Of a DNA stretch of 64,000 nt, positions 4,295 through 23,266 are shown one piece after another. The notes beneath the pieces were generated by a model. The model was given only the letters and a program-made list of their open reading frames with translations, made no database searches and was not told where the DNA came from. The DNA is from an uncultured Clostridia bacterium. Its GTDB lineage: Bacteria; Bacillota; Clostridia; UBA1381. A program made the translations under genes and the position numbers. The stretch spans positions 1 through 64,000 of the forward strand of contig CAKSNH010000013.1 in NCBI GenBank assembly GCA_934476075.1, written 5' to 3'. Each line of letters begins with the position of its first letter. The stretch's first letter is position 1.

Positions 4295-4312
4295 ACTATT
4301 CCTCCGTGCTGA

Positions 4313-5920
4313 TTATTGCATATTCTTTTTCATTTCCAAATATTCATCATAACTGCACATTCTGTCGATTATACCGTCGGGAGTTATCTCGATAATACGG
4401 TTTGCGATAGTCTGTATAAATTCATGGTCGTGCGAGGCGAATATAATATTGCCGGCAAAGCTTTCCAAGCCTTTGTTTACGGCTGTGATAGATTCAAGGT
4501 CAAGATGGTTTGTAGGCTGGTCGAGCAGCAGCACGTTTGAACCGTATACCATCATTCTCGAAAGCATACATCTTACCTTTTCACCGCCCGAAAGCACGTT
4601 TACTTCCTTAAACACATCATCGCCCGAGAACAACATTCTGCCCAGAAAACCACGAATATAAGACTCGTTTTGGGTGTCGAAACCGTCGGGAGTGTATTGC
4701 CTTAGCCAATCAATCAGATTTAGCTTGCACCCGTCAAAATATTTCGTATTGTCCTTAGGGAAGTAGCTTTGACTTGTGCTCACACCCCATTTGTAGCTGC
4801 CTGAATCGGGTTCGGCATTGCCCGAAAGAATTTCAAAAAGCATGGTAACCGCAAGTTCATTTTCGCCGATAATTGCGATTTTGTCATTTTTGTTGACGGT
4901 AAAGGTTATGTCGTTAAGCAAAAGCTGTCCGTCCTGTGATTTGGTAAGCGAGTTTACAAACAAAATGTCTTTGCCCGCCTCTCTGTCCATGGTAAATCCG
5001 ACAAACGGATATTTTCTGCTTGACGCCGGCATTTCCTCAACCGTGATTTTTTCAAGCATTTTCTTTCTTGAAGTAGCCTGTTTTGACTTTGATTTATTTG
5101 CCGAGAAACGCTGAATAAAGTTTTGCAGTTCGCTGATACGTTCTTCCGCTTTCTTGTTTTGCTGTTTCATCATTCTTTCGATAAGCTGACTCGATTCATA
5201 CCAGAACTCGTAGTTGCCGACATACATTTTAATTTTTGTATAGTCAATATCGACTATATGCGTACATACCGTGTTAAGGAAATGACGGTCATGCGATACA
5301 ACTATTATCGTACCTTCGTAGTCAAGAATAAAGTCTTCAAGCCATTCGATAGCCTGTATGTCAAGGTGGTTTGTAGGCTCGTCAAGAAGGATAATGTCGG
5401 GATTTCCGAAAAGAGCCTGTGCAAGCAGTATTTTCACCTTTTCATTGCCTGTAAGCGATGACATTTCTTGATATAAAATTGATTCGTCCAAACCAAGTCC
5501 CTGTACAAGTCTTGATGCGTTCGATTCGGCCTCCCAGCCATCAAGCTCGGCAAACTCAGCCTCTAAGTCGGCGGCACGAATACCGTCCTCATCGGAAAAA
5601 TCCTCTTTTGCATACAATGCGTCTTTTTCCTTCATAATATCATACAGGTGCTTGTTGCCGATTATTATTGTGTCAAGCACGGTGTAGCTGTCGTATGCGA
5701 AATGGTCCTGTTTTAGGACGGACATTCTTGTGTTTTCGCTGATTGATACTTCACCGGTCGTGGAGTCAAGCTCGCCCGAAAGTATTTTTAAAAATGTGGA
5801 TTTGCCCGCACCGTTCGCACCGATAACCCCGTAGCAATTACCCGGTGTAAATTTAAGGTTTACGTTTGAGAACAGATTTGTTCCGCTGAAATTTAAACTT
5901 AGATTTGTAACTGTTATCAC
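4313..5920 (-). CDS. ABC-F family ATPase (two fused ABC domains, no TMD). Subtype undetermined: translation factor-like or ARE-type. Start is the GTG at 5920 (MITVTNLSLNF) after AGGAGA.
   Basis: Two Walker A motifs (GANGAGKST and a second NBD), two ABC signature and Walker B regions, and a charged interdomain linker. Confidence 0.8.
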   Translation of the reverse strand: MITVTNLSLNFSGTNLFSNVNLKFTPGNCYGVIGANGAGKSTFLKILSGELDSTTGEVSISENTRMSVLKQDHFAYDSYTVLDTIIIGNKHLYDIMKEKDALYAKEDFSDEDGIRAADLEAEFAELDGWEAESNASRLVQGLGLDESILYQEMSSLTGNEKVKILLAQALFGNPDIILLDEPTNHLDIQAIEWLEDFILDYEGTIIVVSHDRHFLNTVCTHIVDIDYTKIKMYVGNYEFWYESSQLIERMMKQQNKKAEERISELQNFIQRFSANKSKSKQATSRKKMLEKITVEEMPASSRKYPFVGFTMDREAGKDILFVNSLTKSQDGQLLLNDITFTVNKNDKIAIIGENELAVTMLFEILSGNAEPDSGSYKWGVSTSQSYFPKDNTKYFDGCKLNLIDWLRQYTPDGFDTQNESYIRGFLGRMLFSGDDVFKEVNVLSGGEKVRCMLSRMMVYGSNVLLLDQPTNHLDLESITAVNKGLESFAGNIIFASHDHEFIQTIANRIIEITPDGIIDRMCSYDEYLEMKKNMQ

Positions 5921-6733: not shown

Positions 6734-8335
6734 TTATTTTTCCTGTGCATACAGTGCCGCAAAATTAAGAAGCTGCTTTTTTGAGGAAACACCGAGTTTG
6801 CTGTAAATATTGCCGTTATGATATTTAAGTGTACTCTCTTTAACTTCTGCAATCTGTAAAATTTCAGGAACGGTTTTTCCGGCCAGATAGAGGTCAAATA
6901 TTGTTTTCTCCTTGGGAGTAAGGCTGCGTATACCCGAACAGAAATGATTATAATCATCCTGTACGATGATATTTTTATGCTCTTTCATTAGACGCTTGTT
7001 TTCGGTTTTGATACGTTTAATCTCGCTTTGCAGACTTTCGTTTTTTTCGGAATGCTCGTCGAAGATTTTTTGATATTCATTATCCTTTCCGGCAAGAAAT
7101 GCAAAAAGGTCGTCAATTTCCATGATACCGCTTTGACTTTCGTCAGAATATGCCTTTTCGGATTGTTTTATTTTGTCAAGCGATTTTTTTATCGGAAGGA
7201 TAAATCGTTTTGAAAAATACAGGCTAAGGCTTAAAACAGCAAACCCCAAAATCAGAATTATGAGTATAAGCTGCATGGTGTTTTTCGTTTCCAATCCGGA
7301 ATAATCCGCATACGGCATCATAACCGTGACCGAATAAGGCGTGTTTTCGGAATAAAGAGTGGTGTTTCTTGTCATGCCGACATATGCACCGTATTCGTTT
7401 TTCAAAGTGGCAAGACCCTTTTTCATAGGCTTAATTTTTAGGGAATTCTTAGGTGCAAGAAAATATCCGTTTTTTGCTCCGCAGCTTAATCCCTCTTTGA
7501 TATTAATTTCTTTATCGTCCGAGCGGGAGAATACGCAAGTTATGTGCGGAAGTGTGGACGGCTGTGCGTGCACGGATTTAAAAACGCTTTCGTTCACTTC
7601 AAAACCGCAGATGCCGTAAACACGGCCGCCATCGCCCCTGATAGGAAGAGCAATAAGCATAACTCGCTCCGACGTTCCGGGAAGTGTTATAATATTGCAG
7701 ATGTGAGCGGCTTTTTCAATCGGCTCGGAAGTATCCGAAAAAACTTCTTCAAAATTCGGAAATACCTCGGCATCAAATTCCAAATGCCATTTACGGTGAG
7801 GCATAATACCTTTGTTTATTGCAGCCTTCACATTTCCCCTGTAAAGAAGCATTGTTTCCTTGTCGGTTGTTTCAAATATGTCCCGGTTAAGATATACGCC
7901 TGCTTTTGAACCGCTTGCACCGGTTTGAGATGCGTTAATCAGAATAAAAGCACCGGAACAGCTTGCATTTAAAAGTTCGTTCTTCAATAAATCAATATAG
8001 CGTTCTTCAAGAGCATTGATATGCAAAGAAGAATTTTGAACGTCGCCGAAATCTGTATTTTCTGAATTAAGATATTGCTCTGTAAGCTGTGCGGCTTTTT
8101 CGGAAAGCTGTGCGCCACGCAAGGTAATATCATTATAGTAAGACGCCATTTCACGGTCAAAAAACTCAATCTGAAGGCTTAATATATCCGATATTTTATC
8201 CGCAGTTGTCGAAAAACGTCCGAACAGGAAGAGAAAAGCCGCAAATATAAGCAATAAAACAATAGCTAGGATAAACATATATCCAAACAGCTTTTTTTGC
8301 ATAGATTGTTTTTTGTTTCTTACCGATATTTGCAT
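6734..8335 (-). CDS. Membrane-anchored LuxR-family (GerE-type HTH) one-component regulator with a large extracytoplasmic sensor domain.
   Basis: TM1 near the N-terminus, a ~300-aa extracytoplasmic region, TM2, a cytoplasmic coiled-coil and a C-terminal LuxR HTH (LTPKEKTIFDLYLAGKTVPEILQIAEVKESTLKYHNGNIYSKLGVSSKKQL). The preferred start is MQISV at 8335, with RBS ACGGGGGA. Confidence 0.65.
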   Translation of the reverse strand: MQISVRNKKQSMQKKLFGYMFILAIVLLLIFAAFLFLFGRFSTTADKISDILSLQIEFFDREMASYYNDITLRGAQLSEKAAQLTEQYLNSENTDFGDVQNSSLHINALEERYIDLLKNELLNASCSGAFILINASQTGASGSKAGVYLNRDIFETTDKETMLLYRGNVKAAINKGIMPHRKWHLEFDAEVFPNFEEVFSDTSEPIEKAAHICNIITLPGTSERVMLIALPIRGDGGRVYGICGFEVNESVFKSVHAQPSTLPHITCVFSRSDDKEINIKEGLSCGAKNGYFLAPKNSLKIKPMKKGLATLKNEYGAYVGMTRNTTLYSENTPYSVTVMMPYADYSGLETKNTMQLILIILILGFAVLSLSLYFSKRFILPIKKSLDKIKQSEKAYSDESQSGIMEIDDLFAFLAGKDNEYQKIFDEHSEKNESLQSEIKRIKTENKRLMKEHKNIIVQDDYNHFCSGIRSLTPKEKTIFDLYLAGKTVPEILQIAEVKESTLKYHNGNIYSKLGVSSKKQLLNFAALYAQEK

Positions 8336-8348
8336 AACAATCCCCCGT

Positions 8349-9671
8349 CTATTTTTCGCAGAGCTTTTGCCACAGTCCCTCAGCAAGTGCTTCGGGAGGC
8401 GTGTTGCTTAATATAAATTGTTTCTGTTCGTTTCTTAAATAATCGTAAAATGCGTAAACTCTGCTGTAATATTCGGGATTTTGCTGTTCTGACAAAACCT
8501 CCGAGCTTTCCTTAACTTTTTTTAGAGTTGCATAGAGTTTTTCATAATCGGTTGTCTTGAAACGGTAGTCGCCTATTTTGTCAAACGCACCGTTTGTAAC
8601 CGGCATATAACCTGTTTGGCATACGAACTCAAGATTTCTTTTCGGTTCGGTAAGCCATTTGGCAAAAATCGCTGACGCTTCTGCTTTTTGAGTTGTTGTT
8701 TTATATGAACAAAGTCCAACTCCGGCTTGCGTAATATACGGTTTTTTGCCATTTTCCGATGGAACAGGCAGTATCTCCAAATTCATCGGCTCACTTGTCC
8801 CGTCCTCATATGTCACGGTATTGTTATAGTAAAGAATTGCGGCGGACGAGCCTATCCCTGCCACAACCTCACCTGTCATAACCTGCGTGTTAGAATAGAG
8901 GTTTGAAAGCATAATATGTCCTTTTGCAAACGAATCCGCAAATTTCATAAATGTCTGCTTAAATATCACGTTAGAAGTGTCATAAAATCCGTTGTCGGCA
9001 AAAATGTTCTCTACGCCATTTTCCGCAGCTGCAAGCTCAACGGCACGGAGCGGATAATCAAGAGCACAGAACGGTTTTCCGCCCGACCAGTCATAATATT
9101 TCGCAGCAGCGTCAAAAAAACCGTTCCAGTCGGAAAGGGATTCATATGTAACGCCCGTATCGGCTGAAAAACGTTCAAATTGACCCCCGGCGATAAATAA
9201 AAGATGCGTGGATTTGGACACAGGAAACACAGCTAACCTTCCGTCTGCCGTGCCGTCCTCCAAAAACTCGGGAACATATGAAGAAAGCTCTTTTTCGGAA
9301 AAATATTCGTTCCAGTCAATTAAATTATCCGTTCCAAGTTCCAGTGCGTTGCTTTTGTGTGCAAAGAAAAGGTCGGGCATTTCGGCGGAGCCGGGAATTT
9401 TTTTTTGTGCGTCAAGCAGCTTTTCGCCTATTTTGGAGGCGTTGGACATTGCCGTGACGTTGATGATAATGCCTTTTTCCATGCCAACTGTCTCGTTGAA
9501 TTCGTCAATAAGCCGATTCATAGGCGAATCCGCCTGTTCTCCGTAAACGTGCCACATTGTAAGCGTAACGGGTTTGTTTTTATCAAGTTCCGATTTTTTG
9601 CAGCCCGAAAAGCAACAAAGCGAAACAGCTAATATGAGTAAAAGCGAAAAAATTTTTCTTATTTGCCACAT
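8349..9671 (-). CDS. Extracellular solute-binding lipoprotein (ABC-type SBP family 1-like, sugar-type). No permease or ATPase genes adjacent.
   Basis: Lipoprotein signal peptide LLLILAVSLCCFSGC and an SBP-like fold pattern. It sits immediately upstream of, and in the same orientation as, the membrane LuxR regulator, with a 13-bp gap. Confidence 0.65.
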   Translation of the reverse strand: MWQIRKIFSLLLILAVSLCCFSGCKKSELDKNKPVTLTMWHVYGEQADSPMNRLIDEFNETVGMEKGIIINVTAMSNASKIGEKLLDAQKKIPGSAEMPDLFFAHKSNALELGTDNLIDWNEYFSEKELSSYVPEFLEDGTADGRLAVFPVSKSTHLLFIAGGQFERFSADTGVTYESLSDWNGFFDAAAKYYDWSGGKPFCALDYPLRAVELAAAENGVENIFADNGFYDTSNVIFKQTFMKFADSFAKGHIMLSNLYSNTQVMTGEVVAGIGSSAAILYYNNTVTYEDGTSEPMNLEILPVPSENGKKPYITQAGVGLCSYKTTTQKAEASAIFAKWLTEPKRNLEFVCQTGYMPVTNGAFDKIGDYRFKTTDYEKLYATLKKVKESSEVLSEQQNPEYYSRVYAFYDYLRNEQKQFILSNTPPEALAEGLWQKLCEK

Positions 9672-9755
9672 ACAAAAATCCCTCCGTGATAAGTTTTTAT
9701 GATTTTTTATCCGTTTTCGTATTTTTTACAACGAACGTTTGCCGCTACCTGCATT

Positions 9756-9858
9756 TTTTAATTTGTAGGAAATTGCGTAAAACGCAATGACGAAAAATCA
9801 AAAATGCTACCTTAGTCCTCCGCCCGCAGGCGGTGCTTCTATCAGAAGCTTTTTTATA
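9756..9858 (+). repeat. Intergenic repeat family 1, copy 1 (~100 bp, ends in a terminator-like double hairpin).
   Basis: TTAATTTGTAGGAAATTGCGTAAAACGCAATGACGAAAAATCAAAAATGCTACCTTAGTCCTCCGCCCGCAGGCGGTGCTTCTATCAGAAGCTTTTTTAT. Confidence 0.8.
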
Positions 9859-10286
9859 CTTTTCCCCTACTTTTTCCCCTACTTTTTCAAAAAAAACTTA
9901 AATATTTTGAAATTTATCCTATACTTTTGGCAAAAAGTATGGGGACAAAAAGATATGTTTATGTATAATGTAAATATGTAAAAACAACAATTTGCAACAC
10001 CGGAAAGAGTCGTCTGCAAAAAACAAAGATAAAGGGCATCTTTTTATGTATGTGCTTTAACATATTGTAAAGTATATTATAGTTTCTTATAAAAAGACGC
10101 ATTCCTTTTTAGCAGACATACTCTATTCAAGTATATTACACTTTTGACATTTTGTCAATGGCTTGCGGATTTTGAAGTTCCCTATTTTTTGGCAGCATCC
10201 AAAACCTATATCAGGAAACAAGGATAATTTGCATACATTTGTGAAAGAAACGGGTTTATAAGCTTTTCGGAGAGGAGGCGAGGCAT

Positions 10287-10670
10287 ATGATAAATGAGAA
10301 GCATAAAACGGCTGCGTACAAAATTATTCCGTCACAGGGCGGAAACCGTTACAGCTTTTTCTGCGAATTGTCAGGAATGCTTGTCTGTACCACAGGAACG
10401 TATTATGCAGACGATTCTGAGGCAGAGCTTTTGGCGGCATGGGAAGCGGAGGGCAAGAAAAATTTTAATTTATGCCATTTGTGCGGCAGATGGATTGATT
10501 CGATTGTATATAATCCGGATATGCTTATGTGCGTGAATTGTGCTCCTCTTGAGGAAGAAGTAAAGTATTGCAAGCACTGCGGTGCAAAAGCAAACAACGA
10601 AGATACAATTTGTTTTGTATGCGGCAAAAAACTATTATATGGAGGAGTTGATGACAGTGACGAGATATAG
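10287..10670 (+). CDS. Small double zinc-ribbon protein (127 aa), cytoplasmic.
   Basis: CxxC pairs: CHLCGRW...CVNCAP and CKHCGAK...CFVCGKK. No signal peptide. First gene of a three-gene coupled operon. Confidence 0.5.
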   Translation: MINEKHKTAAYKIIPSQGGNRYSFFCELSGMLVCTTGTYYADDSEAELLAAWEAEGKKNFNLCHLCGRWIDSIVYNPDMLMCVNCAPLEEEVKYCKHCGAKANNEDTICFVCGKKLLYGGVDDSDEI

Positions 10671-10941
10671 ACCGTTAAGAAAAGATGTTTTGGAGTATTT
10701 CGGTTTTGGTACTAAAAATATGAAAAGGCTTAAAATCTGCCGGTGCTGCGGAAATGTACAGACTGCAAAAAACAAGTTTTGCAAAGCTTGTCAGACAAAA
10801 CTGCCGGAGGAAACAGTTTTTGATATTTACAAAGCAAAGCATCGTTGTTGCACCAAATGCGAAAATGTTCTCCCTAATGATGCGGAGTATTGTCCCATTT
10901 GTGGAACAAAGCAAAACAATAAAGAAAGAGAGGCGATATGA
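10639..10941 (+). CDS. Small double zinc-ribbon protein (~100 aa).
   Basis: CRCCGNV...CKACQTK and CTKCENV...CPICGTK. Its start overlaps the stop of the upstream gene, and its stop overlaps the ATG of the downstream giant gene (ATGA). Confidence 0.5.
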   Translation: MEELMTVTRYRPLRKDVLEYFGFGTKNMKRLKICRCCGNVQTAKNKFCKACQTKLPEETVFDIYKAKHRCCTKCENVLPNDAEYCPICGTKQNNKEREAI

Positions 10942-13900
10942 ATATGAAGAAGTTTTTATCACTGTGTATGGTATTTATTATGTTGATGACGTTTTTGCCG
11001 TTTACGGCATTTGCGGACTATTCCGACGGTCAGAACTGCGGAAGCTGCGGGCACTACCACTGGGACAGCTATTGCTGCGGAAACTGCGGCCGCTGTACGG
11101 AGGATTGCAGAAGCGACTGTTTTGAAATCACTCATTGCCAAAGCTGCGGAGAATGTTTTGCCGATATGAGCGAAAACGAATACTGCACCGAATGCTGGAA
11201 TTGTATAGAATGCGGCGAAAACGAGCACTGCAAATATTGCGGAGAGTGCGGCAGGGATATTTGCAGCGACTGTCATATCTGCGAAGACTGCCGACAGACG
11301 AACGGCGCTATCTGCCAGTACTGCGATGCCTGTCTGACTTGTCTTTACGGCGAGGGAGAACTTGATGAGGAGGATATGTGCAAGACCTGTCGTGCAACTC
11401 TTGCCTGCTGTCTGTCTATCGTTTGCCAGGAATGTCTGTCCTCCTGCAATCAATGTAAATCCATAGACGAATTCTGCACAAGTTGCGAAAGGTGCGTAGA
11501 CTGTGTCACGGATAATATCATCTGCATGGAATGTGGCAAGTGTAAGGACTGCTGGGGGGGAGACCACTGTACGGAATGTAACAGCTGTGAATATGAATAC
11601 CACGGTGCCTGCGAAATGTGCGATAATTGCGCCGAAAAAGACGACAGAATCTGCGAAAGCTGCGGCAGCTGCGGTTTTTGCAGCGACTGGGAGCCAAGCG
11701 CTATTTGCCCCAACTGCAACGCTTGTCCGGAAGAATATGACAGACGCTGCGAGGACGGGGAACACTGCAATCTTTGCTGGGAGTGGATTTGTGAAAACTG
11801 TAATCAGTGCAGCCACGAAGGCAACATACTGTGTTCGGATTGCGGAGATTACTGCAGCTCGTGTGAAAATTTCTGCTACGACTGTGAGAAATGCGAGGAA
11901 TGTTGCCGTAATACCAGCGAAGAAAACGGCTGCTATCACGGTATATGCGTGGAAAGCAGTGACTGGGACGATTATTCTCACCGCTGTCAATCCTGCGGAA
12001 ATTGCTTTGAGGAAGATGAGATGTGCGACGATTGCAGTCTTTGCGCAGAGTGCTGTCTTAACGAAAGCCAAGGGAATGGCTGTGAGCACGGCATATGCGT
12101 TGAAAGTGCAGACTGGGATGCAGAGGGTCACCGTTGCAGCAGCTGCGGTGAATGTTTTGAAGAAAACGAATTCTGCCCCGACTGCGGATACTGTCTGGAT
12201 TGCTGTTTGAACAATGCCGACTTTGCCGGATGCGTCCACGGTGTCTGCATTGAGAGTAATGAATGGCTAAATCATTTTTGCGACCTGCATGATGGCTGTG
12301 TGGAGGTTTTGTGTGACACCTGCGGCGGCTGTGCCGGCTGCTGCGATAAAATGCGTGCACAGGAAAATTGTACGCACACGCACGTTTGCCCGGGCTCATC
12401 GGGCTGGAGCAAGCATTTCTGCAAAACGTGCAATAAGTGCTTTGCACCTGACGAGATGTGCCAATACTGCGGCAAGTGCCTTGTCTGCTGCAAGTCGGCA
12501 ACGCCTTGCTCCTGCGGCAATGATATATGTCCGAGCGACCCGAAATGGCTCGACCATTATTGCACATCGCACGAAACCTGTTTCTCGAAATGTGCTCACG
12601 GTGCACATACGCATACGCCGGGAAGCACCTATGTGCAGGAGGACGCCAACAGGCATTATCAGACCTGTACCATTTGCGGTATAGCGATGAACCGAAACAG
12701 ACACAGATTAGGAGAAGGGGTTCGTGAAAACTTTTCCGAAGTTTTTGGAAAGCCTACCGCAATCATGCGTTTTACCTGCCTTGACTGCGGATACTCTGAG
12801 AGAAAGATGAGCTCGGTTTCGTCTGCCTGCGTAAACGGAACGTGCGAAGGCAGTGAAGTACTGGCTTATGACACAACGCATCATTGGAGGCAATGCAGCC
12901 TTTGCGGTGACGTAAAAGTCAGCACAAAAACAACGCACGATTTCTCGAAGAACCCCTATGCCTGCGGCGCTTTGAACTGTTATTATAAGAAAATTACCGC
13001 ACCGGCAATAGATACGGTCGGAGGCAAAGAACTTGAATGGGACTATGTTACCTATGTTGACGGCAAAGAAAAATATTACGCTGCGGACGAATTTACGGCG
13101 ATATTCGGTGAAAAACTGGTAATTCCGTATACGCTGTTAAGCGGCGAAAACGTAAAAATGTCGATTATCGACCCCGAAACGGGGATAAAGATAAATCCAC
13201 AACAGAGCACGCCATTTTGGAATATGTATGCCCAGCAACTGGTAACCTATACCAAAGACAGCGTTGTTTTGGATTTACAGGAGCCGCAGTGCCAACGTCT
13301 GTTTAAACACTTGTACGGTCAGTGCGGCAGATATGAATTTATCCTGCGTGCACATAACGAGCTTGGAGATTATGAGGCATACTACAACAGCAACGTGCGG
13401 TTCTTTATCAACCTGCCGCACGAAACGGATGAGTGGCAGATGAATGAAACGCAACACTGGAAGATTTGCTCCAATTCTGATTGCCCCGACGGCGGCAAGC
13501 GTGTGAATATCGGTGCACATGACTGGCGCCACGGCGATTCCTGCGTTGCTTGCGGAAAAATCCGTCCCGTGCGTATCACCTGGCAGACAACCGACCCGAA
13601 GCCGACTTACCGTCACGGACGTGATGACGAAAACTTCGTTAAACTCTCAGTCAAGGCACGAGGCAATAATCTTACTTATCAGTGGTACGGTGCTTATTAC
13701 GATTCTAACGGAGATGTTAAGATATTTAATATCAGTGACATAACGGACGACCCCGTAAACGGTCATGCGGGAACAAAAACCGATACGCTGACCGTTGGAC
13801 TGTATGACGCAATGTGCGGCGAGGTTTTGCAATATGAGGATGAATTTATGTATGTCTGCGTTGTTACCGGCGACGGCGGTACTGTGCAGTCCAAGCCGAT

Positions 13901-14891
13901 TCGCATTACTCCTCAGCACGACACCTCGTCTTACGAATACAGAAATAATTCGATATATACAAACAATCAGACAGACCAACATATGGTAATATGCAAAAAC
14001 TGCCACGAAGAATTTTATATGAAGCCGCACACACCTGGGTATTGGAAAACCACCAAGGAACCTACGGTTGACGATGAGGGCGAGCAGACCTATTACTGTG
14101 CTGACTGTGGCTTAACCAGGCAAAAACAGAAAATTCCCAAACTTGCCGCACCGCATACGCACAACTTCACTGTGGTGGCACATGACGGCATTGCACACTG
14201 GAATACCTGCTCCGATGAAGCTTGCGGACGCTCCGATAACTCCTATGTTCGCCATACATACAGCGACTGGGTGACCGTTACGGCACCAACAATATCTGCG
14301 TCCGGTATTAAGAAACGCATCTGCACGCAAGCCGGCTGCTGGAACGAACAAACCGCACCGATAGCACCGCTGACTCACACCTGCTCCTTTGTCAACAGCT
14401 CATATGTGTATGACGAAACAAGTCACTGGCTGGAATGTGAGAGTTCGGACTGTTCCGAAAAGCTCCGCGTGATACCGCACCGTTATAATCAGATGGTATT
14501 TCCTAAGAAACCTACTCTGACAGAGGAAGGAATCGGTCATCATAGCTGTGCCGTATGCCTTTACGAAGAGGACGTAACGCTTCAGAAGATTACCGAAGAA
14601 CCCGTCTTGCAGCTGTTTGAAAAAAACGGTGAATATTGCATACACGCTTCCAACGGCGGAATTTCTGCCTATGTTTGGATAGCAAGCTATAAAAACGGGC
14701 AGATGATTGATGTGAAAAGAGAAGTTATCCGCCAAATAGATATGCCGGTACTTGACGCTTCTGTCGACACCCTTGAACTGAATATTTTGGAGGCGGATGA
14801 GATTAGGGCGTTTATGTTCAGCTATGATAAGCAGATAAAGCCTCTTTTGCCTGCGGCAAGACTGAAAATAACAATTACAGAGGACATTTGA
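10938..14891 (+). CDS. Giant secreted, extremely cysteine-rich repeat protein (1317 aa). The N-terminal ~530 aa are a dense array of CxxC/CxC knuckles. The C-terminal ~790 aa contain repeated HxW-C...C modules interspersed with beta-rich segments.
   Basis: Signal peptide MNMKKFLSLCMVFIMLMTFLPFTAFA. Roughly one residue in four to five is Cys across the first ~100 mature residues (e.g. NCGSCGHYHWDSYCCGNCGRCTEDCRSDCFEITHCQSCGECF...). There are three consecutive ~45-aa modules GC[YEV]HG[IV]C[VI]ES.DW...C.[SD]CG.CFEE.E.C.DC..C..CC. Translationally coupled to two zinc-ribbon genes. Confidence 0.7.
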   Translation: MNMKKFLSLCMVFIMLMTFLPFTAFADYSDGQNCGSCGHYHWDSYCCGNCGRCTEDCRSDCFEITHCQSCGECFADMSENEYCTECWNCIECGENEHCKYCGECGRDICSDCHICEDCRQTNGAICQYCDACLTCLYGEGELDEEDMCKTCRATLACCLSIVCQECLSSCNQCKSIDEFCTSCERCVDCVTDNIICMECGKCKDCWGGDHCTECNSCEYEYHGACEMCDNCAEKDDRICESCGSCGFCSDWEPSAICPNCNACPEEYDRRCEDGEHCNLCWEWICENCNQCSHEGNILCSDCGDYCSSCENFCYDCEKCEECCRNTSEENGCYHGICVESSDWDDYSHRCQSCGNCFEEDEMCDDCSLCAECCLNESQGNGCEHGICVESADWDAEGHRCSSCGECFEENEFCPDCGYCLDCCLNNADFAGCVHGVCIESNEWLNHFCDLHDGCVEVLCDTCGGCAGCCDKMRAQENCTHTHVCPGSSGWSKHFCKTCNKCFAPDEMCQYCGKCLVCCKSATPCSCGNDICPSDPKWLDHYCTSHETCFSKCAHGAHTHTPGSTYVQEDANRHYQTCTICGIAMNRNRHRLGEGVRENFSEVFGKPTAIMRFTCLDCGYSERKMSSVSSACVNGTCEGSEVLAYDTTHHWRQCSLCGDVKVSTKTTHDFSKNPYACGALNCYYKKITAPAIDTVGGKELEWDYVTYVDGKEKYYAADEFTAIFGEKLVIPYTLLSGENVKMSIIDPETGIKINPQQSTPFWNMYAQQLVTYTKDSVVLDLQEPQCQRLFKHLYGQCGRYEFILRAHNELGDYEAYYNSNVRFFINLPHETDEWQMNETQHWKICSNSDCPDGGKRVNIGAHDWRHGDSCVACGKIRPVRITWQTTDPKPTYRHGRDDENFVKLSVKARGNNLTYQWYGAYYDSNGDVKIFNISDITDDPVNGHAGTKTDTLTVGLYDAMCGEVLQYEDEFMYVCVVTGDGGTVQSKPIRITPQHDTSSYEYRNNSIYTNNQTDQHMVICKNCHEEFYMKPHTPGYWKTTKEPTVDDEGEQTYYCADCGLTRQKQKIPKLAAPHTHNFTVVAHDGIAHWNTCSDEACGRSDNSYVRHTYSDWVTVTAPTISASGIKKRICTQAGCWNEQTAPIAPLTHTCSFVNSSYVYDETSHWLECESSDCSEKLRVIPHRYNQMVFPKKPTLTEEGIGHHSCAVCLYEEDVTLQKITEEPVLQLFEKNGEYCIHASNGGISAYVWIASYKNGQMIDVKREVIRQIDMPVLDASVDTLELNILEADEIRAFMFSYDKQIKPLLPAARLKITITEDI

Positions 14892-15239
14892 AAAATCTTA
14901 CGGTATGCGGCAAGCTATACAAAAACCATTCTTAATGAGCAGGACATAAGGTTGAGAAGGGTTATTGTATCGGCGGTGTAATAATGTTTGACGGGTGTTG
15001 GGATATAAATATTGATAAATGCTGCCTGTACGGCTGCAACGGTGTAAGCGTAACAAACTCGGCAATTAAAAATAACAGCAGCTCGGAGAATTCGTATTTT
15101 ATAAGCACTTACGATTGCTCGGATATTGAATTTTCCGGCTGTGACTTTTCAAATAATTCTTATTATAATTTCTTGCAGCGTCGATGCTGTAAAATTTATC
15201 GGATGCAAATGATGATAAGCATATTAAGGGAGTGAAATT

Positions 15240-16319
15240 ATGGAAACAGTACAAAACTATAAGTGTCCTTGCTGCGGTGCTTCGCTGATTTTTCGGAATG
15301 AGGCGCTGCACTGCGATTCTTGTGGAAATGATTTTGAACTTGACGCCATGCAGCAAATTGACGATGCCGGAGCACAAATGCAGGGTGAATCAAAATATGA
15401 CTGGGAGCATTACGAACCGAGAAGTTATGAAGCAGACGGAGAGATTGAACTCGCAAGCTATACCTGTCCCTCCTGTGGTGCGGAAATAACCGGTGACGAT
15501 ACAATGGGGTCAACCGTTTGTCCATACTGTGGCGATGCAGCGGTGATTAAGGGACAGTTTGAAGGTGCTCTCCGACCTGACTATATTATTCCGTTTAAGA
15601 CAGATAAGAAGGCGGCAATGGAGGCATTTGAGGCAGATTTCAAAAATGCACCGTTCCTACCGGATGAATTTAAGGTTAAAAAGAAAATAGAAGAAATGGT
15701 GGGTGTTTATGTGCCGTTTTGGATGTTTGACTGCGATTGCAGTGCGGCAATAACTTACGGTGCACAAATAGTTGCAAGTTGGAGTGATTCCAATTATCAT
15801 TATACCAAAACAGATTATTACAGACTTTTCAGAAGCGGCAGTGTGGGTTTTGCCAACATTCCTGTTGACGGCTCAAAAAAAGCGGATGACGCATATATGG
15901 AGGCGGTAGAACCTTTTTGTTATGATGATGCAGTGGAGTTTAACGGTGCATATCTTTCGGGGTATATGGCGGATAAATATGATGTTTCGGTAGAGGAAAG
16001 CATAGAGCGAGCGAACGAACGTGTAAAAAATTCAACGGTTTCGGTATTTAAGGAAACGACGAGCGGTTACACTGCGGTGATTCCCGAAAGTACAAAAATC
16101 AGTTTTTCAGACGGTAAAATAAGGTATTCCCTGCTCCCGGTTTGGATGCTCAATATTAAATATATGAACAATACATATAAGTTTGCTATCAACGGACAGA
16201 CCGGTAAGGTTGTCGGTGAATACCCTATTGATAACAGAAAAAAATGGAGATATTTTGCGAAAATTGCCGGCTTTGCTTATATAGCAGCGGCAGTTATAGC
16301 ATATTTCTTGCTGCATTAG
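15240..16319 (+). CDS. Double zinc-ribbon protein with a C-terminal TM anchor. Resembles the B. subtilis YdjG-like partner of the TPM/SPFH stress module.
   Basis: CPCCGAS...CDSCGND and CPSCGAE...CPYCGD ribbons, then a ~250-aa domain and a terminal hydrophobic helix (FAKIAGFAYIAAAVIAYFLL). RBS AAGGGAG. Confidence 0.55.
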   Translation: METVQNYKCPCCGASLIFRNEALHCDSCGNDFELDAMQQIDDAGAQMQGESKYDWEHYEPRSYEADGEIELASYTCPSCGAEITGDDTMGSTVCPYCGDAAVIKGQFEGALRPDYIIPFKTDKKAAMEAFEADFKNAPFLPDEFKVKKKIEEMVGVYVPFWMFDCDCSAAITYGAQIVASWSDSNYHYTKTDYYRLFRSGSVGFANIPVDGSKKADDAYMEAVEPFCYDDAVEFNGAYLSGYMADKYDVSVEESIERANERVKNSTVSVFKETTSGYTAVIPESTKISFSDGKIRYSLLPVWMLNIKYMNNTYKFAINGQTGKVVGEYPIDNRKKWRYFAKIAGFAYIAAAVIAYFLLH

Positions 16320-16330
16320 GAGGGAGCAAA

Positions 16331-17107
16331 ATGAAAAGAATTGTTACAATCATGATTGGCTTTCTCTGCTTTGTATTGACAATTACCGTATATGCGGATT
16401 TTAACAAACCTACGATTACGGATTCGGTCGGATACCTGACAGAGGAACAGAATAAAGAACTGTCGGCAAGGCTTGATAAAATTCGTGAACAATATAGTTT
16501 TGACATCGCATTTGTTTCAGAGGATAGATTATCTGCCTATGACGCACAAACGTCAGCAGACGACATTTACGATTATAATGGCTACGGCTACGGTGAAAAT
16601 TATGACGGAATACTTTTTTATATAGCAGATTCCGAAAGAGAATATCATTTTACCGTCTGCGGCAGCGGTGAAACGATATTTAACGAAAACGGTCTTGCCT
16701 ATCTGGAAAAAAATATTGTTCCGTATTTGAAGAAAGACAATTATTATGCTGCGGTCAAATCATACGCCAATCATACGGAAGAACTTTTGGAGATGGCAGC
16801 AGATGGCAAGCCATTCAACAAAACTCAGCACAGCATGAAGTATATCCTGTGTGTGGTTGCCGGGGGGCTTCTTCTTCCCCTTATTCTTGCATATTTTATG
16901 ATGCACAAAAAGCTCTGTGCAATGAAAACGGCGGTCAAAGAGGATTATGCCGGCAATTATATGAAACCGAACAGTATGAATCTTGACTTTTCAAGGGATA
17001 TATTCCTTTACAGCACCGTGACAAAAACGGAAAAACCGAAATCGGATTCCGGAAGCCATACATCGTCTTCCGGCAGAAGTCACGGCGGAAGAGGCGGAAG
17101 TTTTTAA
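16331..17107 (+). CDS. TPM-domain (TLP18.3/Psb32/MOLO-1, DUF477) membrane protein, YdjH/YgcG-like.
   Basis: Signal/TM segment, then the TPM motif VGYLTEEQNKELSARLDKIREQYSFDIAFV, a C-terminal TM and a Gly/Ser/Arg-rich tail (SSGRSHGGRGGSF). Confidence 0.65.
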   Translation: MKRIVTIMIGFLCFVLTITVYADFNKPTITDSVGYLTEEQNKELSARLDKIREQYSFDIAFVSEDRLSAYDAQTSADDIYDYNGYGYGENYDGILFYIADSEREYHFTVCGSGETIFNENGLAYLEKNIVPYLKKDNYYAAVKSYANHTEELLEMAADGKPFNKTQHSMKYILCVVAGGLLLPLILAYFMMHKKLCAMKTAVKEDYAGNYMKPNSMNLDFSRDIFLYSTVTKTEKPKSDSGSHTSSSGRSHGGRGGSF

Positions 17108-17133
17108 TAAAAAAATTTAAGGAGGAAAAAAAT

Positions 17134-18012
17134 ATGGGACTTGGTGATTTTTTCAAGAACATTTTCGGCAAAAAGAATTGTGCATTATGCGGAAAGGAAT
17201 GCGGTATGATGCATCGTTCAAAAATCAAGAACAAGGAATTTTTATGTGACGATTGCGGAAATCTATGTTCAAAGTACATTAGGCTGAGCGAGCTGACATT
17301 GGACGAAGTTAAGGGACATATAGAATATATGAAACGGCAGAACAGACTTTTTGAGGAGGTCTATTCCAAAGAAGGAAACAAGGACACATACCCTTCGTCG
17401 CTCAAGGAAATGGGTATTGAATTTTGCGATGATTTGGGGATGTTTCGGATTAAACACAGAAACAACACGGGCAGAGGCAAAATGAACGAGCTTTTCCGCT
17501 ACGACCAGGTGGCAGGCTATGAGGAATACATAGATGAAACACCGTCAACCGAGCCGGGGAAAAAACCTGAATTTAAGGAATGCGGATTAAAAATCAAGCT
17601 TTTGGGCGGAAATATGAGCAAGGTGAATACAGACAACAAAAAAGGTCTTCGTCCTCATCCGTATATCAAGCAAGAACTTAAAATCTGTTTCAGCAAAAAC
17701 AATCGTTCGGACGCACAGTATGCACATAATGCAAAATGCAAGTTTGATTATATTTTCGGTGTTCATGATGATGAAAGAGGTTTGTTCGGCTTTGGCAGAA
17801 GTAATGCAGAAAAAAGAGAGGATGCGGCAGCGATTGGAATGGCGGCGGCATTCGGAACGGCTTTTAAGGCTGCAACAAAAGGAGAGGAAGCCATAACGGA
17901 GGCGGACAAAGAAAAATTGAAGGAAGGCATAAATGCTATGAATGACGCAGCGACCGGCGGTATGGCGGTTTACACAAGACGTGCGGACGATGCGGAAGCC
18001 AAAATAAAGTAA
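17134..18012 (+). CDS. Hypothetical zinc-ribbon protein (292 aa).
   Basis: N-terminal CALCGKEC...CDDCGNLC ribbon. The N-terminus MGLGDFFKNIFG resembles that of the downstream SPFH-like gene. Ala-rich C-terminus. RBS AAGGAGG. Confidence 0.45.
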   Translation: MGLGDFFKNIFGKKNCALCGKECGMMHRSKIKNKEFLCDDCGNLCSKYIRLSELTLDEVKGHIEYMKRQNRLFEEVYSKEGNKDTYPSSLKEMGIEFCDDLGMFRIKHRNNTGRGKMNELFRYDQVAGYEEYIDETPSTEPGKKPEFKECGLKIKLLGGNMSKVNTDNKKGLRPHPYIKQELKICFSKNNRSDAQYAHNAKCKFDYIFGVHDDERGLFGFGRSNAEKREDAAAIGMAAAFGTAFKAATKGEEAITEADKEKLKEGINAMNDAATGGMAVYTRRADDAEAKIK

Positions 18013-18027
18013 CGGGAGGTGCAAAAC

Positions 18028-19212
18028 GTGAAAAAACTATCATTATTGCTTGCAATATTGCTGATTTTAAACGTCACTGTTGTCTGTGCGGAATGGGAAA
18101 CATTCAAATCGGCGGACGGTATGTATGAATACACAAATGATGGAGTAATTACCGCTTATTACGGTGATGAATTTGCCTTTTTTCCGGAAGAAATAGACGG
18201 AACAAAAATCAATGAAATCGGCGTTATGGCTTGTTTTGACTTAGGAATTAAATTCATATCCTTTGCCGAAGGAATTGAATTGATAAACACAAATGCTTTT
18301 GAAGGCTGCAATGCCGAAAGTGCATATATTCCGTCAAGTGTGAAAAATATTGGTGAGCGTGCTTTTGCAAACTGTGCAAATCTTAATGAGGTTACATTGA
18401 ATTCAGAGGAAATAACATTTGATTTTGATGTGTTTATCGGAACCGGATTTATAAAGTTTTATATCCCGTGCACGGCAGATAAGGATGTGATGTACGAAAA
18501 AATATTCAATGCAAAGGGTGATGGGAATTTTAGTTTTTCACTTATGCACACTGCGATTGTTGAAAGTATGACGGAAAAGGATATTTTCGGTGAGAACATG
18601 ATATACTGCGAGAACTGCGGTTTTAAAGGAAGTAGATATTTGGAGGATACATCTCTGCCGTTTGCGGACGTATCGCAGGACGCATGGTACTATTCTTATG
18701 TACAGATGGCGTACAGCTTCGGCATCATAAACGGGAAAAATGAAATGGAATTTGACCCGAATGCAGGGCTTACCTGTGCGGAGGCAGCCAAAATTGCCGC
18801 AGTAATTCACAATAAAAGCCAATACGAAAGAGAGGAAGTTGAATTCCAAATGACCGGTGAAAACTGGTATGATGTTTATGTGGATTATTGCTATGACAAT
18901 GCAATAATTGAAGATTATATCATCTTTGATTGGGAGAAAAACGCAACGCGTGCACAGATGGCATATCTGTTTTCAAGGTGCGACGTCAATCCGTATTTTA
19001 TAAACGATGTCCCGATAACCGATATTCCGGACGTTTATGACACAACGCCCTTCGCATATGAAATTTTGGATCTTTACAATAAGGGAGTCGCAGTGGGAGG
19101 CAATGAATACATGGCATTTTATCCGGATTCACAGGTTAAACGGAGCGAAGCAGCAGCACTGATTTCGAGAATTCTTTGCTATGATATGAGAATTGAATTG
19201 CCGAAAGGGTGA
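18028..19212 (+). CDS. Cell-surface protein with BspA-type leucine-rich repeats and C-terminal SLH-like repeats.
   Basis: Signal peptide. LRR_5-type units (INTNAFEGCNAESAYIPSSVKNIGERAFANCANLNEVTL). SLH-like segments (FADVSQDAWYYSYVQMAYSFGIINGKNEMEFDP; FINDVPITDIPDVYDTTPFAYEILDLYNKGVAVG). The start is alternatively the GTG at 18019. Confidence 0.6.
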   Translation: MKKLSLLLAILLILNVTVVCAEWETFKSADGMYEYTNDGVITAYYGDEFAFFPEEIDGTKINEIGVMACFDLGIKFISFAEGIELINTNAFEGCNAESAYIPSSVKNIGERAFANCANLNEVTLNSEEITFDFDVFIGTGFIKFYIPCTADKDVMYEKIFNAKGDGNFSFSLMHTAIVESMTEKDIFGENMIYCENCGFKGSRYLEDTSLPFADVSQDAWYYSYVQMAYSFGIINGKNEMEFDPNAGLTCAEAAKIAAVIHNKSQYEREEVEFQMTGENWYDVYVDYCYDNAIIEDYIIFDWEKNATRAQMAYLFSRCDVNPYFINDVPITDIPDVYDTTPFAYEILDLYNKGVAVGGNEYMAFYPDSQVKRSEAAALISRILCYDMRIELPKG

Positions 19213-19757
19213 TTAAGGTGAGGCTGATGAAAGTAATTGCGATATTTACGATTATTGCCGGTCTTTTCGGATGCAAGGCTCCCGGAGAAAAACCTTTTAT
19301 GCTGGACGGACCGGGCATGGTGTATGTCGACAGTGAGCATCGCACAGAATACGCAAATACTCTTCCGTTCGATGAAATTGATGATTATCCTTATTGGGCG
19401 GTCGCATATTTCGGAGAGGGAGATGAGGGTGAAAAAGCAGCAAAGGAATATGTAGAAAAACTTTTTTCAGAACTTTCAGAGGAAAAACGCCGAGCAATAG
19501 GGCATTACGATTACGGCAGAGAAAAATGGTATCTTGTTATTCCACGGTACGGAGAGGAAAACGAGTTGATTCAAAACGGCGATAAGAAAAATTTGCAAAA
19601 AGTACATGACGGTACACCGTATATAATAAACTGCGGCGGCGATGTTGAATTTTATATCTCCATGCGTGGCGGACATAAAATCACGCTTGATACAGATGAA
19701 AACGGCAGACTGATATGTACACCCGATATATGGGATATAACAGAGTATAAAAAATAA
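19209..19757 (+). CDS. Hypothetical lipoprotein. An alternative ATG start lies at 19227.
   Basis: Lipobox AIFTIIAGLFGC. The GTG start overlaps the upstream stop (GTGA). Confidence 0.5.
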   Translation: MIKVRLMKVIAIFTIIAGLFGCKAPGEKPFMLDGPGMVYVDSEHRTEYANTLPFDEIDDYPYWAVAYFGEGDEGEKAAKEYVEKLFSELSEEKRRAIGHYDYGREKWYLVIPRYGEENELIQNGDKKNLQKVHDGTPYIINCGGDVEFYISMRGGHKITLDTDENGRLICTPDIWDITEYKK

Positions 19758-19781
19758 AATAATTGAGAGGAGAACATAATT

Positions 19782-23264: not shown

Positions 23265-23266
23265 AA

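Follow-up and report, generated by a model that had tools for sequence, protein, structure and literature searches.

This locus raises the question of what a putatively exported bacterial protein with 148 cysteines is for, and whether the two small zinc-ribbon proteins encoded immediately upstream are devoted to it. The window, that is, the whole 64,000-nucleotide stretch that was analysed, carries three adjacent genes on the forward strand, here called A (10287..10670; 127 aa), B (10639..10941; 93-100 aa) and C (10938-14891; 1317 aa). The stop/start overlaps described for them are present, including the ATGA shared by the stop of B (TGA, 10939-10941) and the start of C (ATG, 10938-10940). The start of B is ambiguous among ATG 10639 (100 aa), ATG 10651 (96 aa) and GTG 10657 (93 aa); A's stop at 10670 overlaps B from every one of these candidates, and relatives of B are annotated at 93-96 aa. 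Genes for GSIII, RnfC and RnfB are found in the same window, confirming the Rnf/GSIII anaerobe context that had been assumed for the host.

The Cys content of C is 11.2%, as compared to 0.3-4.8% for other open reading frames of the window, and the sole other high-Cys outlier is the Fe-S protein RnfB (9.9%). The extreme Cys density of the original prediction holds, although the first 105 mature residues contain 24 Cys and not about 26. Residues 27-555 contain 115 Cys, 22 His and 60 overlapping CxxC motifs, and of the 67 overlapping CxxC motifs in the 3.95 kb of the gene 60 lie within the first 1.67 kb. The N-terminal module is also highly acidic (103 Asp+Glu vs 28 Lys+Arg). It is preceded by a putative Sec-type signal peptide (residues 1-26; 10938..11015, forward strand), which was read by eye as MNMKKFLSLCMVFIMLMTFLPFTAFA followed by DY, with a basic n-region (KK), a 17-residue hydrophobic core and a cleavage-like site between AFA and DY. 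A twin-arginine (Tat) motif is absent from the leader by the same reading. Equivalent leaders directly precede the Cys-rich region in most of the family members listed, and C is predicted to be exported by Sec. The reading frame was checked for being an artefact and proved genuine. It is intact in about 20 complete related metagenome loci (1304-1449 codons, 144-153 Cys), and 134 of the 148 Cys are retained by every one of six full-length homologues, the most distant of which is 29% identical; outside the Cys, identity is down to 21-30%. At one related locus (L002), C is the most diverged gene, with 44-48% identity vs 59-93% for its neighbours, in line with a scaffold that is conserved and an exposed surface that varies.

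The view that C belongs to no described family is supported by all searches. Comparison of C with Pfam and NCBIfam gave zero matches at E<=1, the zinc-finger family HMMs of Pfam included, and comparison with PDB sequences gave no real match, the best being a FYVE finger at E=0.04. Fold searches with the N-terminal module returned nothing significant; the weak matches belong to zinc-ribbon and cross-brace zinc-finger classes. Three known types were considered and rejected. 4Fe-4S ferredoxin types (Fer4 clan) are recognised by a Fer4 HMM or the motif CxxCxxCxxxCP. C has no Fer4 match at E<=1 and a leader without a Tat motif; RnfB and RnfC in the same window match 5-10 Fer4 models, with E from 1e-6 down to 5e-21. 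Giardia variant-specific surface proteins (VSPs; Pfam PF03302) are recognised by an HMM match and a conserved C-terminal transmembrane segment with a CRGKA tail; C has no such match at E<=1 and ends in ...KITITEDI with no hydrophobic tail. In EGF, LDLR-A, defensin-like or furin-like repeats the Cys positions are strictly Cys, without substitution by His, Asp or Glu, and the family HMM matches; no such HMM matches C, and in the repeat described below position 22 is H, C, D or E and position 39 tolerates H or D.

A profile search of 1.84 billion proteins has revealed a family of about 200 clusters at E<=1e-3, 132 of them at E<=1e-10. Clusters matching the Cys-rich module mostly carry leader peptides, and the members inspected are large surface proteins with the module at the extreme N-terminus. 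Pfam partners in 26 diverse members are Flg_new, LRR_5, SLH, dockerin, Big_2/3, Cu_amine_oxidN1 and fn3, and no enzyme domain was detected by Pfam in these 26. Anchors in the relatives include dockerin (P0007, P0009, P0012), SLH (P0015, P0018) and, in P0017-type proteins, a transmembrane segment and, after it, a basic tail of the KKRK type. Since the C-terminus of the relatives is anchored by SLH, dockerin or a transmembrane tail and the module is distal, the module would be the outward-facing working end of the protein.

The N-terminal module consists of two parts. Residues 27-312 (11016..11873, forward strand) form an irregular poly-Cys region, delimited from the list of Cys spacings, in which 66 Cys occur mostly in CxxCxxC(xxC) clusters with linkers of 5-9 residues; 60 of the 66 are invariant in the six homologues, and AF2 pLDDT is mostly 35-68, i.e., of low confidence. 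Residues 313-553 (11874..12596, forward strand) are five tandem repeats of ~48 aa, as established by spacing and repeat alignment, with the pattern C-x2-C-x2-C-x2-CC-x8-C-x-[H/C]-x2-C-x10-12-H-x-C-x2-[C/H]-x2-C, which has 12 ligand-type positions. All 49 Cys of this part are invariant in the same homologues, and AF2 predicts a repeated hairpin-knuckle and short-helix pattern at pLDDT 70-85 (N-terminal half overall: mean pLDDT 62, pTM 0.29).

The repeat was compared in 313 non-redundant copies from 119 repeat-bearing family proteins, six near-identical sequences having been dropped. Position 22 is His (.44), Cys (.26), Asp (.10) or Glu (.09), position 34 is His (.98), and position 39 is Cys (.81), His (.07) or Asp (.07). 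Gly follows the second Cys of a knuckle at a frequency of.63-.66, making CxxCG knuckles frequent, and His and Cys are swapped at two positions among C's own five repeats. Most known extracellular Cys-rich repeats are disulfide-bonded, and the N-terminal half of C could likewise be a disulfide-knotted domain of the EGF, LDLR, defensin or furin type, with its Cys as cross-links. This is unlikely, because ligand-type substitutions at otherwise-Cys positions, a near-invariant His inside the repeat and CxxCG knuckles are the signature of a metal site and not of a disulfide, and the His/Cys swaps within C itself point in the same direction. The host is also of a strict-anaerobe type with Rnf and GSIII, and Firmicutes largely keep Cys out of exported proteins, often without Dsb systems. 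On the side of cross-links stand a weak Foldseek match of the N-terminal module to the LDLR repeats of megalin (E=0.22) and the report that zinc in Giardia VSPs is present just at substoichiometric amounts (PMC2996952). Judged from the sequences, metal coordination suits C better than disulfides, and the original proposal of coordination by Cys/His knuckles is strengthened by the interchange of His, Cys, Asp and Glu at ligand positions across the 313 copies.

The explanation that we favour, and consider probable by a modest degree only, is that C is a new extracellular poly-metal scaffold, the metal probably being zinc, carried on an adhesin-like surface protein, with A and B belonging to a conserved gene frame and C to a slot within it. 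In this view an uncultured Clostridia lineage of the gut would export C by Sec to the cell surface, where the adhesin-like protein would have an adhesive or protective function. Residues 27-553 would form an uncatalogued extracellular module whose Cys/His knuckles most likely chelate structural metal, zinc being the default candidate. The module may hold roughly 30 sites, the five repeats contributing three tetrahedral sites each and the irregular part about 16. Bound metal would keep a small-residue, highly acidic chain compact and probably protease-resistant, with no need for disulfide formation. Extracellular four-thiolate zinc sites would be prone to oxidation and would bring more negative charge to an already very acidic chain, and this counts against the favoured explanation, as do the modest AF2 confidence for the N-terminal half and the lack of a recognised anchor in C.

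The C-terminal half has a different construction. Residues 554-1214 (12597..14579, forward strand) comprise Ig-like domains and six zinc-ribbon-like modules, as seen from sequence, AF2 and Foldseek. The modules follow the pattern H-x-W/Y-x2-C-x2-4-C ... C-x2-4-C and begin near residues 574, 649, 840, 1015, 1088 and 1163. Their Cys, read from the sequence, are C577/580...C614/617, C653/656...C676/681 and C844/849...C869/872 in modules 1-3, and C1019/1022...C1054/1057, C1091/1096...C1129/1134 and C1167/1172...C1204/1207 in modules 4-6. By sequence pattern, all six have the two CxxC-type knuckles 15-35 residues apart and the four putative ligands of a zinc ribbon, and the Cys positions are nearly invariant, with the same consensus across the family alignments. 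AF2 models the C-terminal half as all-beta (mean pLDDT 71.8), and Foldseek against PDB gave 168 matches at E<=1e-3, of which the best 50 are mostly multi-Ig adhesion molecules; the top matches are CEA, contactin, Robo and titin, at probability 1.00. As modelled, this half is a string of Ig-like beads, into which the six four-Cys modules would be inserted. Residues 1215-1317 (14580..14891, forward strand) are a C-terminal beta-sandwich domain in the AF2 model (pLDDT 80-90), which is single in C and duplicated in the relatives P0002 and P0004 (seen in L001, L002 and L025), and which may give non-covalent attachment. SLH, dockerin, LPXTG and transmembrane-tail anchors were sought in C by Pfam and motif inspection and none was found; C may therefore be released rather than displayed on the surface.

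The second part of the question concerns A and B. Both have four CxxC knuckles, the arrangement of a double zinc ribbon. They had been described as made almost purely of CxxC pairs, and this is correct for the four knuckles of each protein and incorrect for the N-terminal ~55 residues of A, which form a separate region without knuckles; those of A (C63/66, C82/85, C95/98 and C109/112) are confined to residues 63-112. The curated gathering threshold of the Pfam double zinc ribbon model DZR (PF12773) is 27.3 bits. B scores above it (33.0 bits, E=6.7e-8) and A, a small, predicted cytoplasmic protein, below it (24.3 bits, E=3.5e-5); A is DZR-like only by its four CxxC knuckles. Homologues of A are restricted to a clade, as just 45 clusters exist and every one is at least 52% identical. 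A always adjoins B, downstream of a divergent pair on the reverse strand (6734..9671) consisting, by Pfam, of an SBP_bac_8 solute-binding lipoprotein and a membrane-bound LuxR/GerE-type regulator. This pair is kept upstream of A-B in all loci with enough flank, and its members are candidate regulators of the cassette.

A, B and C do not form the self-contained three-gene operon that had been envisaged, because no terminator-like site was found between the stop of C (14891) and the next gene (15240), and same-strand genes extend downstream of C to about 23.8 kb. The interval 14892..15239 (forward strand) itself holds what is left, in decayed form, of the 3' end of a Cu_amine_oxidN1/beta-helix surface-protein gene, of which L001 has an intact copy; tblastn with the 392-aa protein of that locus gives E=6.6e-24, and blastn aligns three collinear pieces at 90-96% identity. 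It is followed (15240..18012, forward strand) by genes assigned by Pfam to a 359-aa protein with two Zn ribbons and a C-terminal transmembrane segment (D359), a TPM-domain protein and a DUF4428 protein. The D359, TPM and DUF4428 genes adjoin the cassette in close relatives, and in five further loci (L004, L083, L087, L096 and L100) distant Cys-rich homologues are paired with D359/TPM/DUF4428/Band_7_1. In L108 and L109, a 361-aa Zn-ribbon protein (70% identity) and TPM (51%) come immediately after A (53%) and B (35%), with no surface-protein gene in between. In L093, A-B precede a different surface protein, of 909 aa, and extra surface genes follow C in L001, L105 and L112. The direct A-B-D359-TPM order in L108/L109 and the other cargo in L093 put A-B in one conserved frame with the genes downstream. 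Within this frame the place of C is a variable slot, at which surface-protein genes are gained and lost. The frame would consist of A, B and the Zn-ribbon/transmembrane, TPM, DUF4428 and Band_7_1 genes, with C as variable cargo.

A and B had been proposed as dedicated cytoplasmic chaperones, metallochaperones or regulators of C, which would make A-B-C a self-contained cassette. We hold this to be decidedly improbable, since A-B occur without C in L108/L109, where they run straight into D359-TPM, and A and B are missing at the loci of distant C homologues for which 8 kb or more of upstream sequence is available. The family of A is also small (45 clusters, vs about 200 for the Cys-rich module), and a Sec substrate crosses the membrane unfolded, by which any metal loaded in the cytoplasm would be lost. 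The tight stop/start overlaps speak for dedication, as does a second lineage (L093/L070) in which A-B lie directly upstream of a large exported protein with Cys-containing ribbon modules. The B-C overlap is kept in close relatives, and some functional coupling of B and C within the clade is possible.

The domain composition of the frame, and only that, resembles Bacillus subtilis PspA-YdjGHI (SamGHI), in which, according to the literature, YdjG combines a zinc ribbon with a transmembrane segment, and YdjI, of the band-7 type, is recruited by YdjG/H (PMC9239133; PMC8581546). The frame likewise has a Zn-ribbon and transmembrane protein (like YdjG) and a Band_7_1/SPFH protein (like YdjI; Band_7_1 match at E=8e-18), and a membrane TPM-domain protein is also present. 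No PspA gene was seen in the cluster of the window, and unlike YdjGHI the frame includes A, B, DUF4428, an LRR/SLH protein, HEAT and TMEM43-like genes and the variable surface-protein slot. A frame and slot beside an SPFH/TPM membrane module would be a lead on the exchange, and perhaps the regulation, of surface genes.

The CxxCG knuckle pair is the ligand geometry of rubredoxin as well as of zinc ribbons. The metal held by the Cys/His arrays of C could on this ground be redox-active or exchangeable, in the form of rubredoxin-type Fe(Cys)4, Cu(I) or Fe-S clusters built extracellularly, and C would serve as a conduit for extracellular electrons, a metal sink or a scavenger instead of a purely structural scaffold. 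Very dense sites (about 3 per 48 residues), a very acidic N-terminal region and the distal position of the module on surface-anchored relatives agree with this reading, for which we nevertheless see a very small chance. C has no Fer4 or rubredoxin Pfam match at E<=1. Export by Sec without Tat would place folding and metal loading outside the cell, with no known insertion machinery, and cytochrome, flavin-transfer and metal-transporter genes are absent from the conserved neighbourhood. The position of every ligand is strictly conserved, a feature more usual in structural sites than in sinks of the metallothionein kind. The bolder version, in which ~30 close Cys4/Cys3His sites bind rubredoxin-type redox iron or copper instead of zinc and form either a non-haem conduit for electrons or a surface layer that buffers redox state or metal, is a far-fetched prospect; if it were true, cytochrome-poor gut Firmicutes would carry the module at the outermost end of their surface proteins, as a functional counterpart to the multihaem cytochrome wires known from Gram-negative bacteria.

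Returning to a structural metal scaffold, the closest resemblance is to Giardia VSPs and other protozoan CXXC-rich coats. Like these, C is a signal-peptide surface protein, as predicted, with a high, CXXC-dominated Cys content, from an anaerobe or microaerophile of the gut lumen, and in both a conserved Cys scaffold bears variable non-Cys residues. VSPs average 12.6 CXXC per kb, and they are reported to bind zinc and to carry weak RING-like motifs (PMC2996952); protease resistance has been reported as well (PMC6341118). Unlike VSPs, C is bacterial, and is without their C-terminal transmembrane tail or a match to their Pfam model at E<=1; its repeat, 48 aa long, has 12 defined ligand-type positions, an invariant His among them, and Ig-like and zinc-ribbon beads come after the Cys-rich module. 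The resemblance is one of analogy only. In DZR (PF12773), RING/RBR, ClpX ZBD, LIM and FYVE domains, as in C, CxxC(G) knuckles are paired and His and Cys stand in for each other as ligands, and the six C-terminal modules of C have the canonical four-Cys, two-knuckle spacing of zinc ribbons. These zinc ribbons and fingers are found in the cytoplasm or the nucleus, one or a few at a time, whereas C concatenates more than 100 ligand-type residues behind a secretion signal. Clostridia adhesins with Ig-like domains (Big_2/Big_3, Flg_new, BspA-type LRR_5; SLH or dockerin) are similar in their Ig-like beads, and the relatives of C carry those domains and anchors. C itself differs in that Pfam detects no such domain in it and no anchor is recognised, and its N-terminal Cys-rich module belongs to no described adhesin family.

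The general view is that Firmicutes keep Cys out of the proteins that they export; the opposite is seen in a family of giant surface proteins, about 200 sequence clusters in all, from anaerobes of the gut and rumen. What is new is the placing of over 100 invariant Cys/His immediately after a secretion signal, in a repeat architecture for which neither Pfam nor NCBIfam has a model and no solved structure gave a significant match. If zinc is bound, the module would represent a new way to a rigid, probably protease-resistant extracellular scaffold without disulfides, convergent with the CXXC coats of Giardia, and the roughly 35-40 metal ions that each chain might then carry could make a difference to the zinc economy where host and microbe meet. 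The module would define a new domain family for annotating abundant proteins of human-gut metagenomes; the clusters of close relatives of C each stand for up to about 500 member sequences.

The three genes of the cluster are closely packed on the forward strand, and ORF calls bear out the coordinates of the original prediction. Gene A (127 aa) occupies 10287–10670 and gene C (1317 aa) 10938–14891. Gene B ends at 10941, and its three candidate starts (ATG 10639, ATG 10651, and GTG 10657) are all overlapped by the stop of A; B homologues in relatives are annotated at 93–96 aa. The TGA of B and the ATG of C share the sequence ATGA, as had been described, and a ribosome-binding site, GGAGAGGAGG, was found 5' of A. 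The product of C contains 148 Cys (11.2%), against 0.3–4.8% in the remaining ORFs of the window, with the exception of the Fe-S protein RnfB (9.9%). Residues 27–555 hold 115 Cys, 22 His, 103 Asp and Glu, and only 28 Lys and Arg. The extreme Cys density claimed for the mature N-terminus holds, with a corrected count of 24 rather than about 26 in the first 105 mature residues. The leader, MNMKKFLSLCMVFIMLMTFLPFTAFA followed by DY, looks by eye like a Sec signal peptide. Exported proteins of Firmicutes largely exclude cysteine, and C runs counter to this. Within 10001–14000 the G+C content reaches 0.44–0.49 over gene C versus about 0.40 in the flanks, which is probably due to the Cys, Gly, Asp, and Glu codon content and not to foreign origin. 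Several long spurious ORFs overlie C in other frames, such as 10959–12239 on the minus strand.

Comparison with relatives indicates that the reading frame of C is genuine. A word-index search found only 22 homologues, of which five were full-length with identities of 87, 81, 80, 46, and 29%. Aligning the six full-length proteins leaves 134 of the 148 Cys unchanged throughout, including all 49 in residues 316–555, and the non-Cys identity of C to the 29% relative is only 21–30%. A complete ORF of 1304–1449 codons with 144–153 Cys is present in about 20 related metagenome and MAG loci, so that neither the interruption nor the loss of Cys conservation expected of an artefactual frame was found across these loci. 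The related genomes are MAGs of uncultured Clostridia, Oscillospiraceae, and "Christensenellaceae" from the human (Hadza) gut and rumen. Interrupted-looking homologues occur in two loci: in L012 (CP091729.1, a complete MAG) the gene is seemingly frame-shifted near its 3' end at about 13276–13824, and in L056 it is seemingly truncated at 3598–4848. These interruptions could be real decay or long-read or assembly error. In the related locus L002, C is the most divergent gene (44–48% identity vs 59–93% for its neighbours), which would fit a fixed Cys scaffold whose exposed surface evolves rapidly.

Searches of Pfam and NCBIfam with C returned no match at E≤1, and the sole match of a PDB sequence search was a FYVE finger at E=0.04, in keeping with the earlier remark that its architecture was not recognised as a described family. 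An exhaustive profile search with residues 27–560 against 1.84 billion representative proteins recovered about 200 clusters at E≤1e-3, of which 132 were at E≤1e-10. The members listed are mostly 1000–3600 aa long. In most of them the leader peptide is followed directly by a Cys-rich region with 40–60 Cys per 200 residues, and the C-terminal ends are SLH-like, dockerin-like, or transmembrane-plus-basic tails. Pfam partners in 26 diverse members are limited to Flg_new/Flg_new_2, LRR_5, SLH, dockerin, Big_2/3, Cu_amine_oxidN1, fn3, and in one case the carbohydrate-binding domain Cthe_2159; none is an enzyme domain. This architecture of leader, Cys-rich N-terminus, and anchored tail marks the module as the predicted distal head, at the N-terminus of surface proteins whose anchor is C-terminal. 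In C itself, Pfam and motif inspection revealed no recognisable anchor. The family proteins P0008, P0011, P0043, P0054, P0074, P0089, P0095, P0139, and P0161 end in ...G(R/K)KV..K, some of them in ...GKKVLKK, and locus L007 is listed with this subgroup; the endings are reminiscent of Bacteroidota T9SS C-terminal domains. Because NCBIfam and Pfam detected no such domain in members of the ...GKKVLKK type, a spread beyond Firmicutes to Bacteroidota is unconfirmed. The contig of another member, P0009, also carries a DUF4923 gene.

The Cys-rich module of C has two parts. Residues 27–312 form an irregular poly-Cys region of CxxCxxC(xxC) clusters with linkers of 5–9 residues, and residues 313–553 form five repeats of about 48 aa with the pattern C-x2-C-x2-C-x2-CC-x8-C-x-[H/C]-x2-C-x10-12-H-x-C-x2-[C/H]-x2-C. 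Two positions swap His and Cys among the five repeats of C itself. A repeat HMM matched 119 proteins of the family, with 328 copies in all; 313 copies were analysed after near-identical relatives were dropped. Ten positions are mainly Cys, eight of them at 93–100%, position 11 at 86%, and position 42 at 78%. His stands at position 34 in 98% of the copies, position 22 is occupied by His (.44), Cys (.26), Asp (.10), or Glu (.09), position 39 by Cys (.81), His (.07), or Asp (.07), and Gly follows the knuckles at.63–.66. Exchange among the four classical metal ligands, a fixed His, and knuckles of the CxxCG type are hallmarks that would fit tetrahedral metal sites, unlike disulfide partners. A disulfide-knotted fold of the N-terminal half is unlikely, as the ligand-type substitutions in the repeats speak against it. 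The 12 ligands of each repeat would make three metal sites; adding about 16 for the irregular part and six or seven for the C-terminal half gives a possible load of some 35–40 metal ions per chain. The reading that we favour, at somewhat better than even odds, makes C an adhesin-like surface protein exported by Sec, with an extracellular poly-metal scaffold, probably of zinc, as its distal head. The metal sites would give the head a compact, probably protease-resistant fold that would need no disulfide chemistry in an anaerobe. The anaerobic setting proposed earlier stands, since GSIII, RnfC, and RnfB were all detected in the window.

Structural models are suggestive only for the N-terminal half. 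AF2 on residues 27–560 gave a mean pLDDT of 62 and a pTM of 0.29, with a pLDDT of 70–85 over the repeats and a recurrent hairpin-knuckle plus short helix; Foldseek against the PDB returned nothing significant for this model (best E=2.6e-3, probability 0.10). The model of residues 556–1317 is all-beta with a mean pLDDT of 71.8 and gave 168 Foldseek matches at E≤1e-3. The best 50 of these are mostly multi-Ig adhesion molecules (CEA, contactin, Robo, titin), with a few complement/TEP-type proteins, and on this model the stalk of C is an ordinary string of Ig-like beads. Between the beads lie six H-x-W...CxxC...CxxC modules whose Cys spacing is that of zinc ribbons, and the module consensus recurs in family alignments. 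AF2 predicts the last ~100 residues with confidence as a beta-sandwich, which is duplicated in some relatives. This C-terminal domain was considered as a shared sorting module and rejected, since BLAST matched only C homologues and not the neighbouring slot proteins.

A, B, and C occur together in all close relatives with a C at least 46% identical, as a search for homologous three-gene cassettes found. These relatives also keep the same-strand downstream genes for D359 (a 359-aa two-zinc-ribbon protein with a C-terminal transmembrane segment), a TPM-domain membrane protein (TPM), DUF4428, LRR_5+SLH, a 182-aa protein, Band_7_1, and a HEAT protein. In the window this cluster lies at 15240–23842 on the plus strand, with the 182-aa ORF lipoprotein-like, Band_7_1 of the SPFH type, and the HEAT-repeat protein a lipoprotein, and it also includes a TMEM43-like protein and a 191-aa ORF. 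Divergent from A, at 6734–9671 on the minus strand, are genes for a solute-binding SBP_bac_8 lipoprotein with a lipobox-like LCCFSGC and for a membrane-bound LuxR/GerE-type protein of 550 aa. The two are kept in the same close relatives, precede A-B wherever the flank of a relative reaches far enough, and may act as sensor and regulator of the cassette. Rfam found only two tRNAs in the whole window and nothing in the 615-nt leader 5' of A. A scan of 9500–15400 gave promoter and terminator counts at or near shuffle expectation, so operon boundaries cannot be set from it; no terminator-like site was found between the C stop (14891) and the next start (15240).

The original prediction took A and B as dedicated chaperones, metallochaperones, or regulators in a cassette with C, which now appears quite improbable. 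In two related loci, L108 and L109, A and B run straight into D359-TPM with no surface gene between them (identities: A 53%, B 35%, D359 homologue 70%, TPM 51%). Conversely, A and B are missing from distant loci that have a C homologue and 8 kb or more of sequence upstream of it, and are absent from the family at large; the A family comprises only 45 clusters, none below 52% identity. Nor is the cassette fixed, as the content between B and D359 differs from locus to locus. B and D359 adjoin directly in L108, only C separates them in the window and in L002, and C is joined by He_PIG, Flg_new, or Cu_amine_oxidN1 surface proteins in L001, L105, and L112. Several kb of extra sequence lie between C and D359 in L025, L027, L035, and L038. 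L093, of a second lineage, has a 909-aa transmembrane-anchored ribbon-repeat protein directly after A-B (2542–5271), three small ORFs, and, about 2 kb further downstream (7340–11293), a hyper-Cys protein of the P0017 type, with 1317 aa, 222 Cys, and very regular ~48-aa CxxC repeats. In L070 (9651–11293) a deletion, or else an assembly chimera, seems to fuse the signal peptide of the first L093-type protein to the tail of the second. P0017-type Cys-rich proteins that are distant from C also adjoin D359/TPM/DUF4428/Band_7_1 in L004, L083, L087, L096, and L100. The ~349-nt gap after C (14892–15239) is the decayed 3' end of an intact 392-aa gene of L001 (tblastn E=6.6e-24; three collinear blastn pieces of 90–96% identity), and therefore records recent gene loss in the slot. 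The L001 product is a Cu_amine_oxidN1/beta-helix surface protein, and an 83-aa ORF at 14984–15235 belongs to the remnant. From A-B without C, C without A-B, the variable slot, and the distant homologues beside D359/TPM, we conclude that A and B are part of a conserved frame, and C cargo in a surface-protein slot inside it.

A redox-active or exchangeable metal on C, as in an electron conduit or metal sink, is very unlikely. C has no Fer4 or rubredoxin match while RnfB and RnfC match Fer4 strongly, and by-eye inspection found no twin-arginine (Tat) motif in its leader. The size of C (1317 aa), its status as a Sec substrate, and the lack of a maturase gene in the conserved neighbourhood led us to reject a RiPP/radical-SAM substrate.

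C is closest in composition and niche to the VSP coat of Giardia, which is CXXC-rich with reported zinc binding (PMC2996952) and reported protease resistance (PMC6341118); the two are not homologous and differ in architecture. By local motif, zinc ribbons and cross-brace fingers are closest, with no significant HMM or fold score. Literature searches for surface proteins of bacteria with extracellular Cys-rich or zinc-finger regions yielded only Giardia papers and unrelated eukaryotic work. [quoted passage not shown] We infer that C uses a zinc-finger-like array outside the cell on a bacterial surface protein. The domain family is uncatalogued. In domain composition the frame resembles the YdjG/H/I (SamGHI) module of B. 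subtilis, a membrane-stress module of YdjG (a transmembrane zinc ribbon), YdjH, and YdjI (band 7) (PMC9239133; PMC8581546), although no PspA gene was seen in the cluster. Further envelope-related products of the window are an RsgI-like anti-sigma factor (724 aa, 38285–40459), a second SLH protein (412 aa, 43854–45092), and a protein of 339 aa with a zinc ribbon at its N-terminus (60490–61509). Zinc-ribbon-headed membrane proteins seem unusually common in the source genome.
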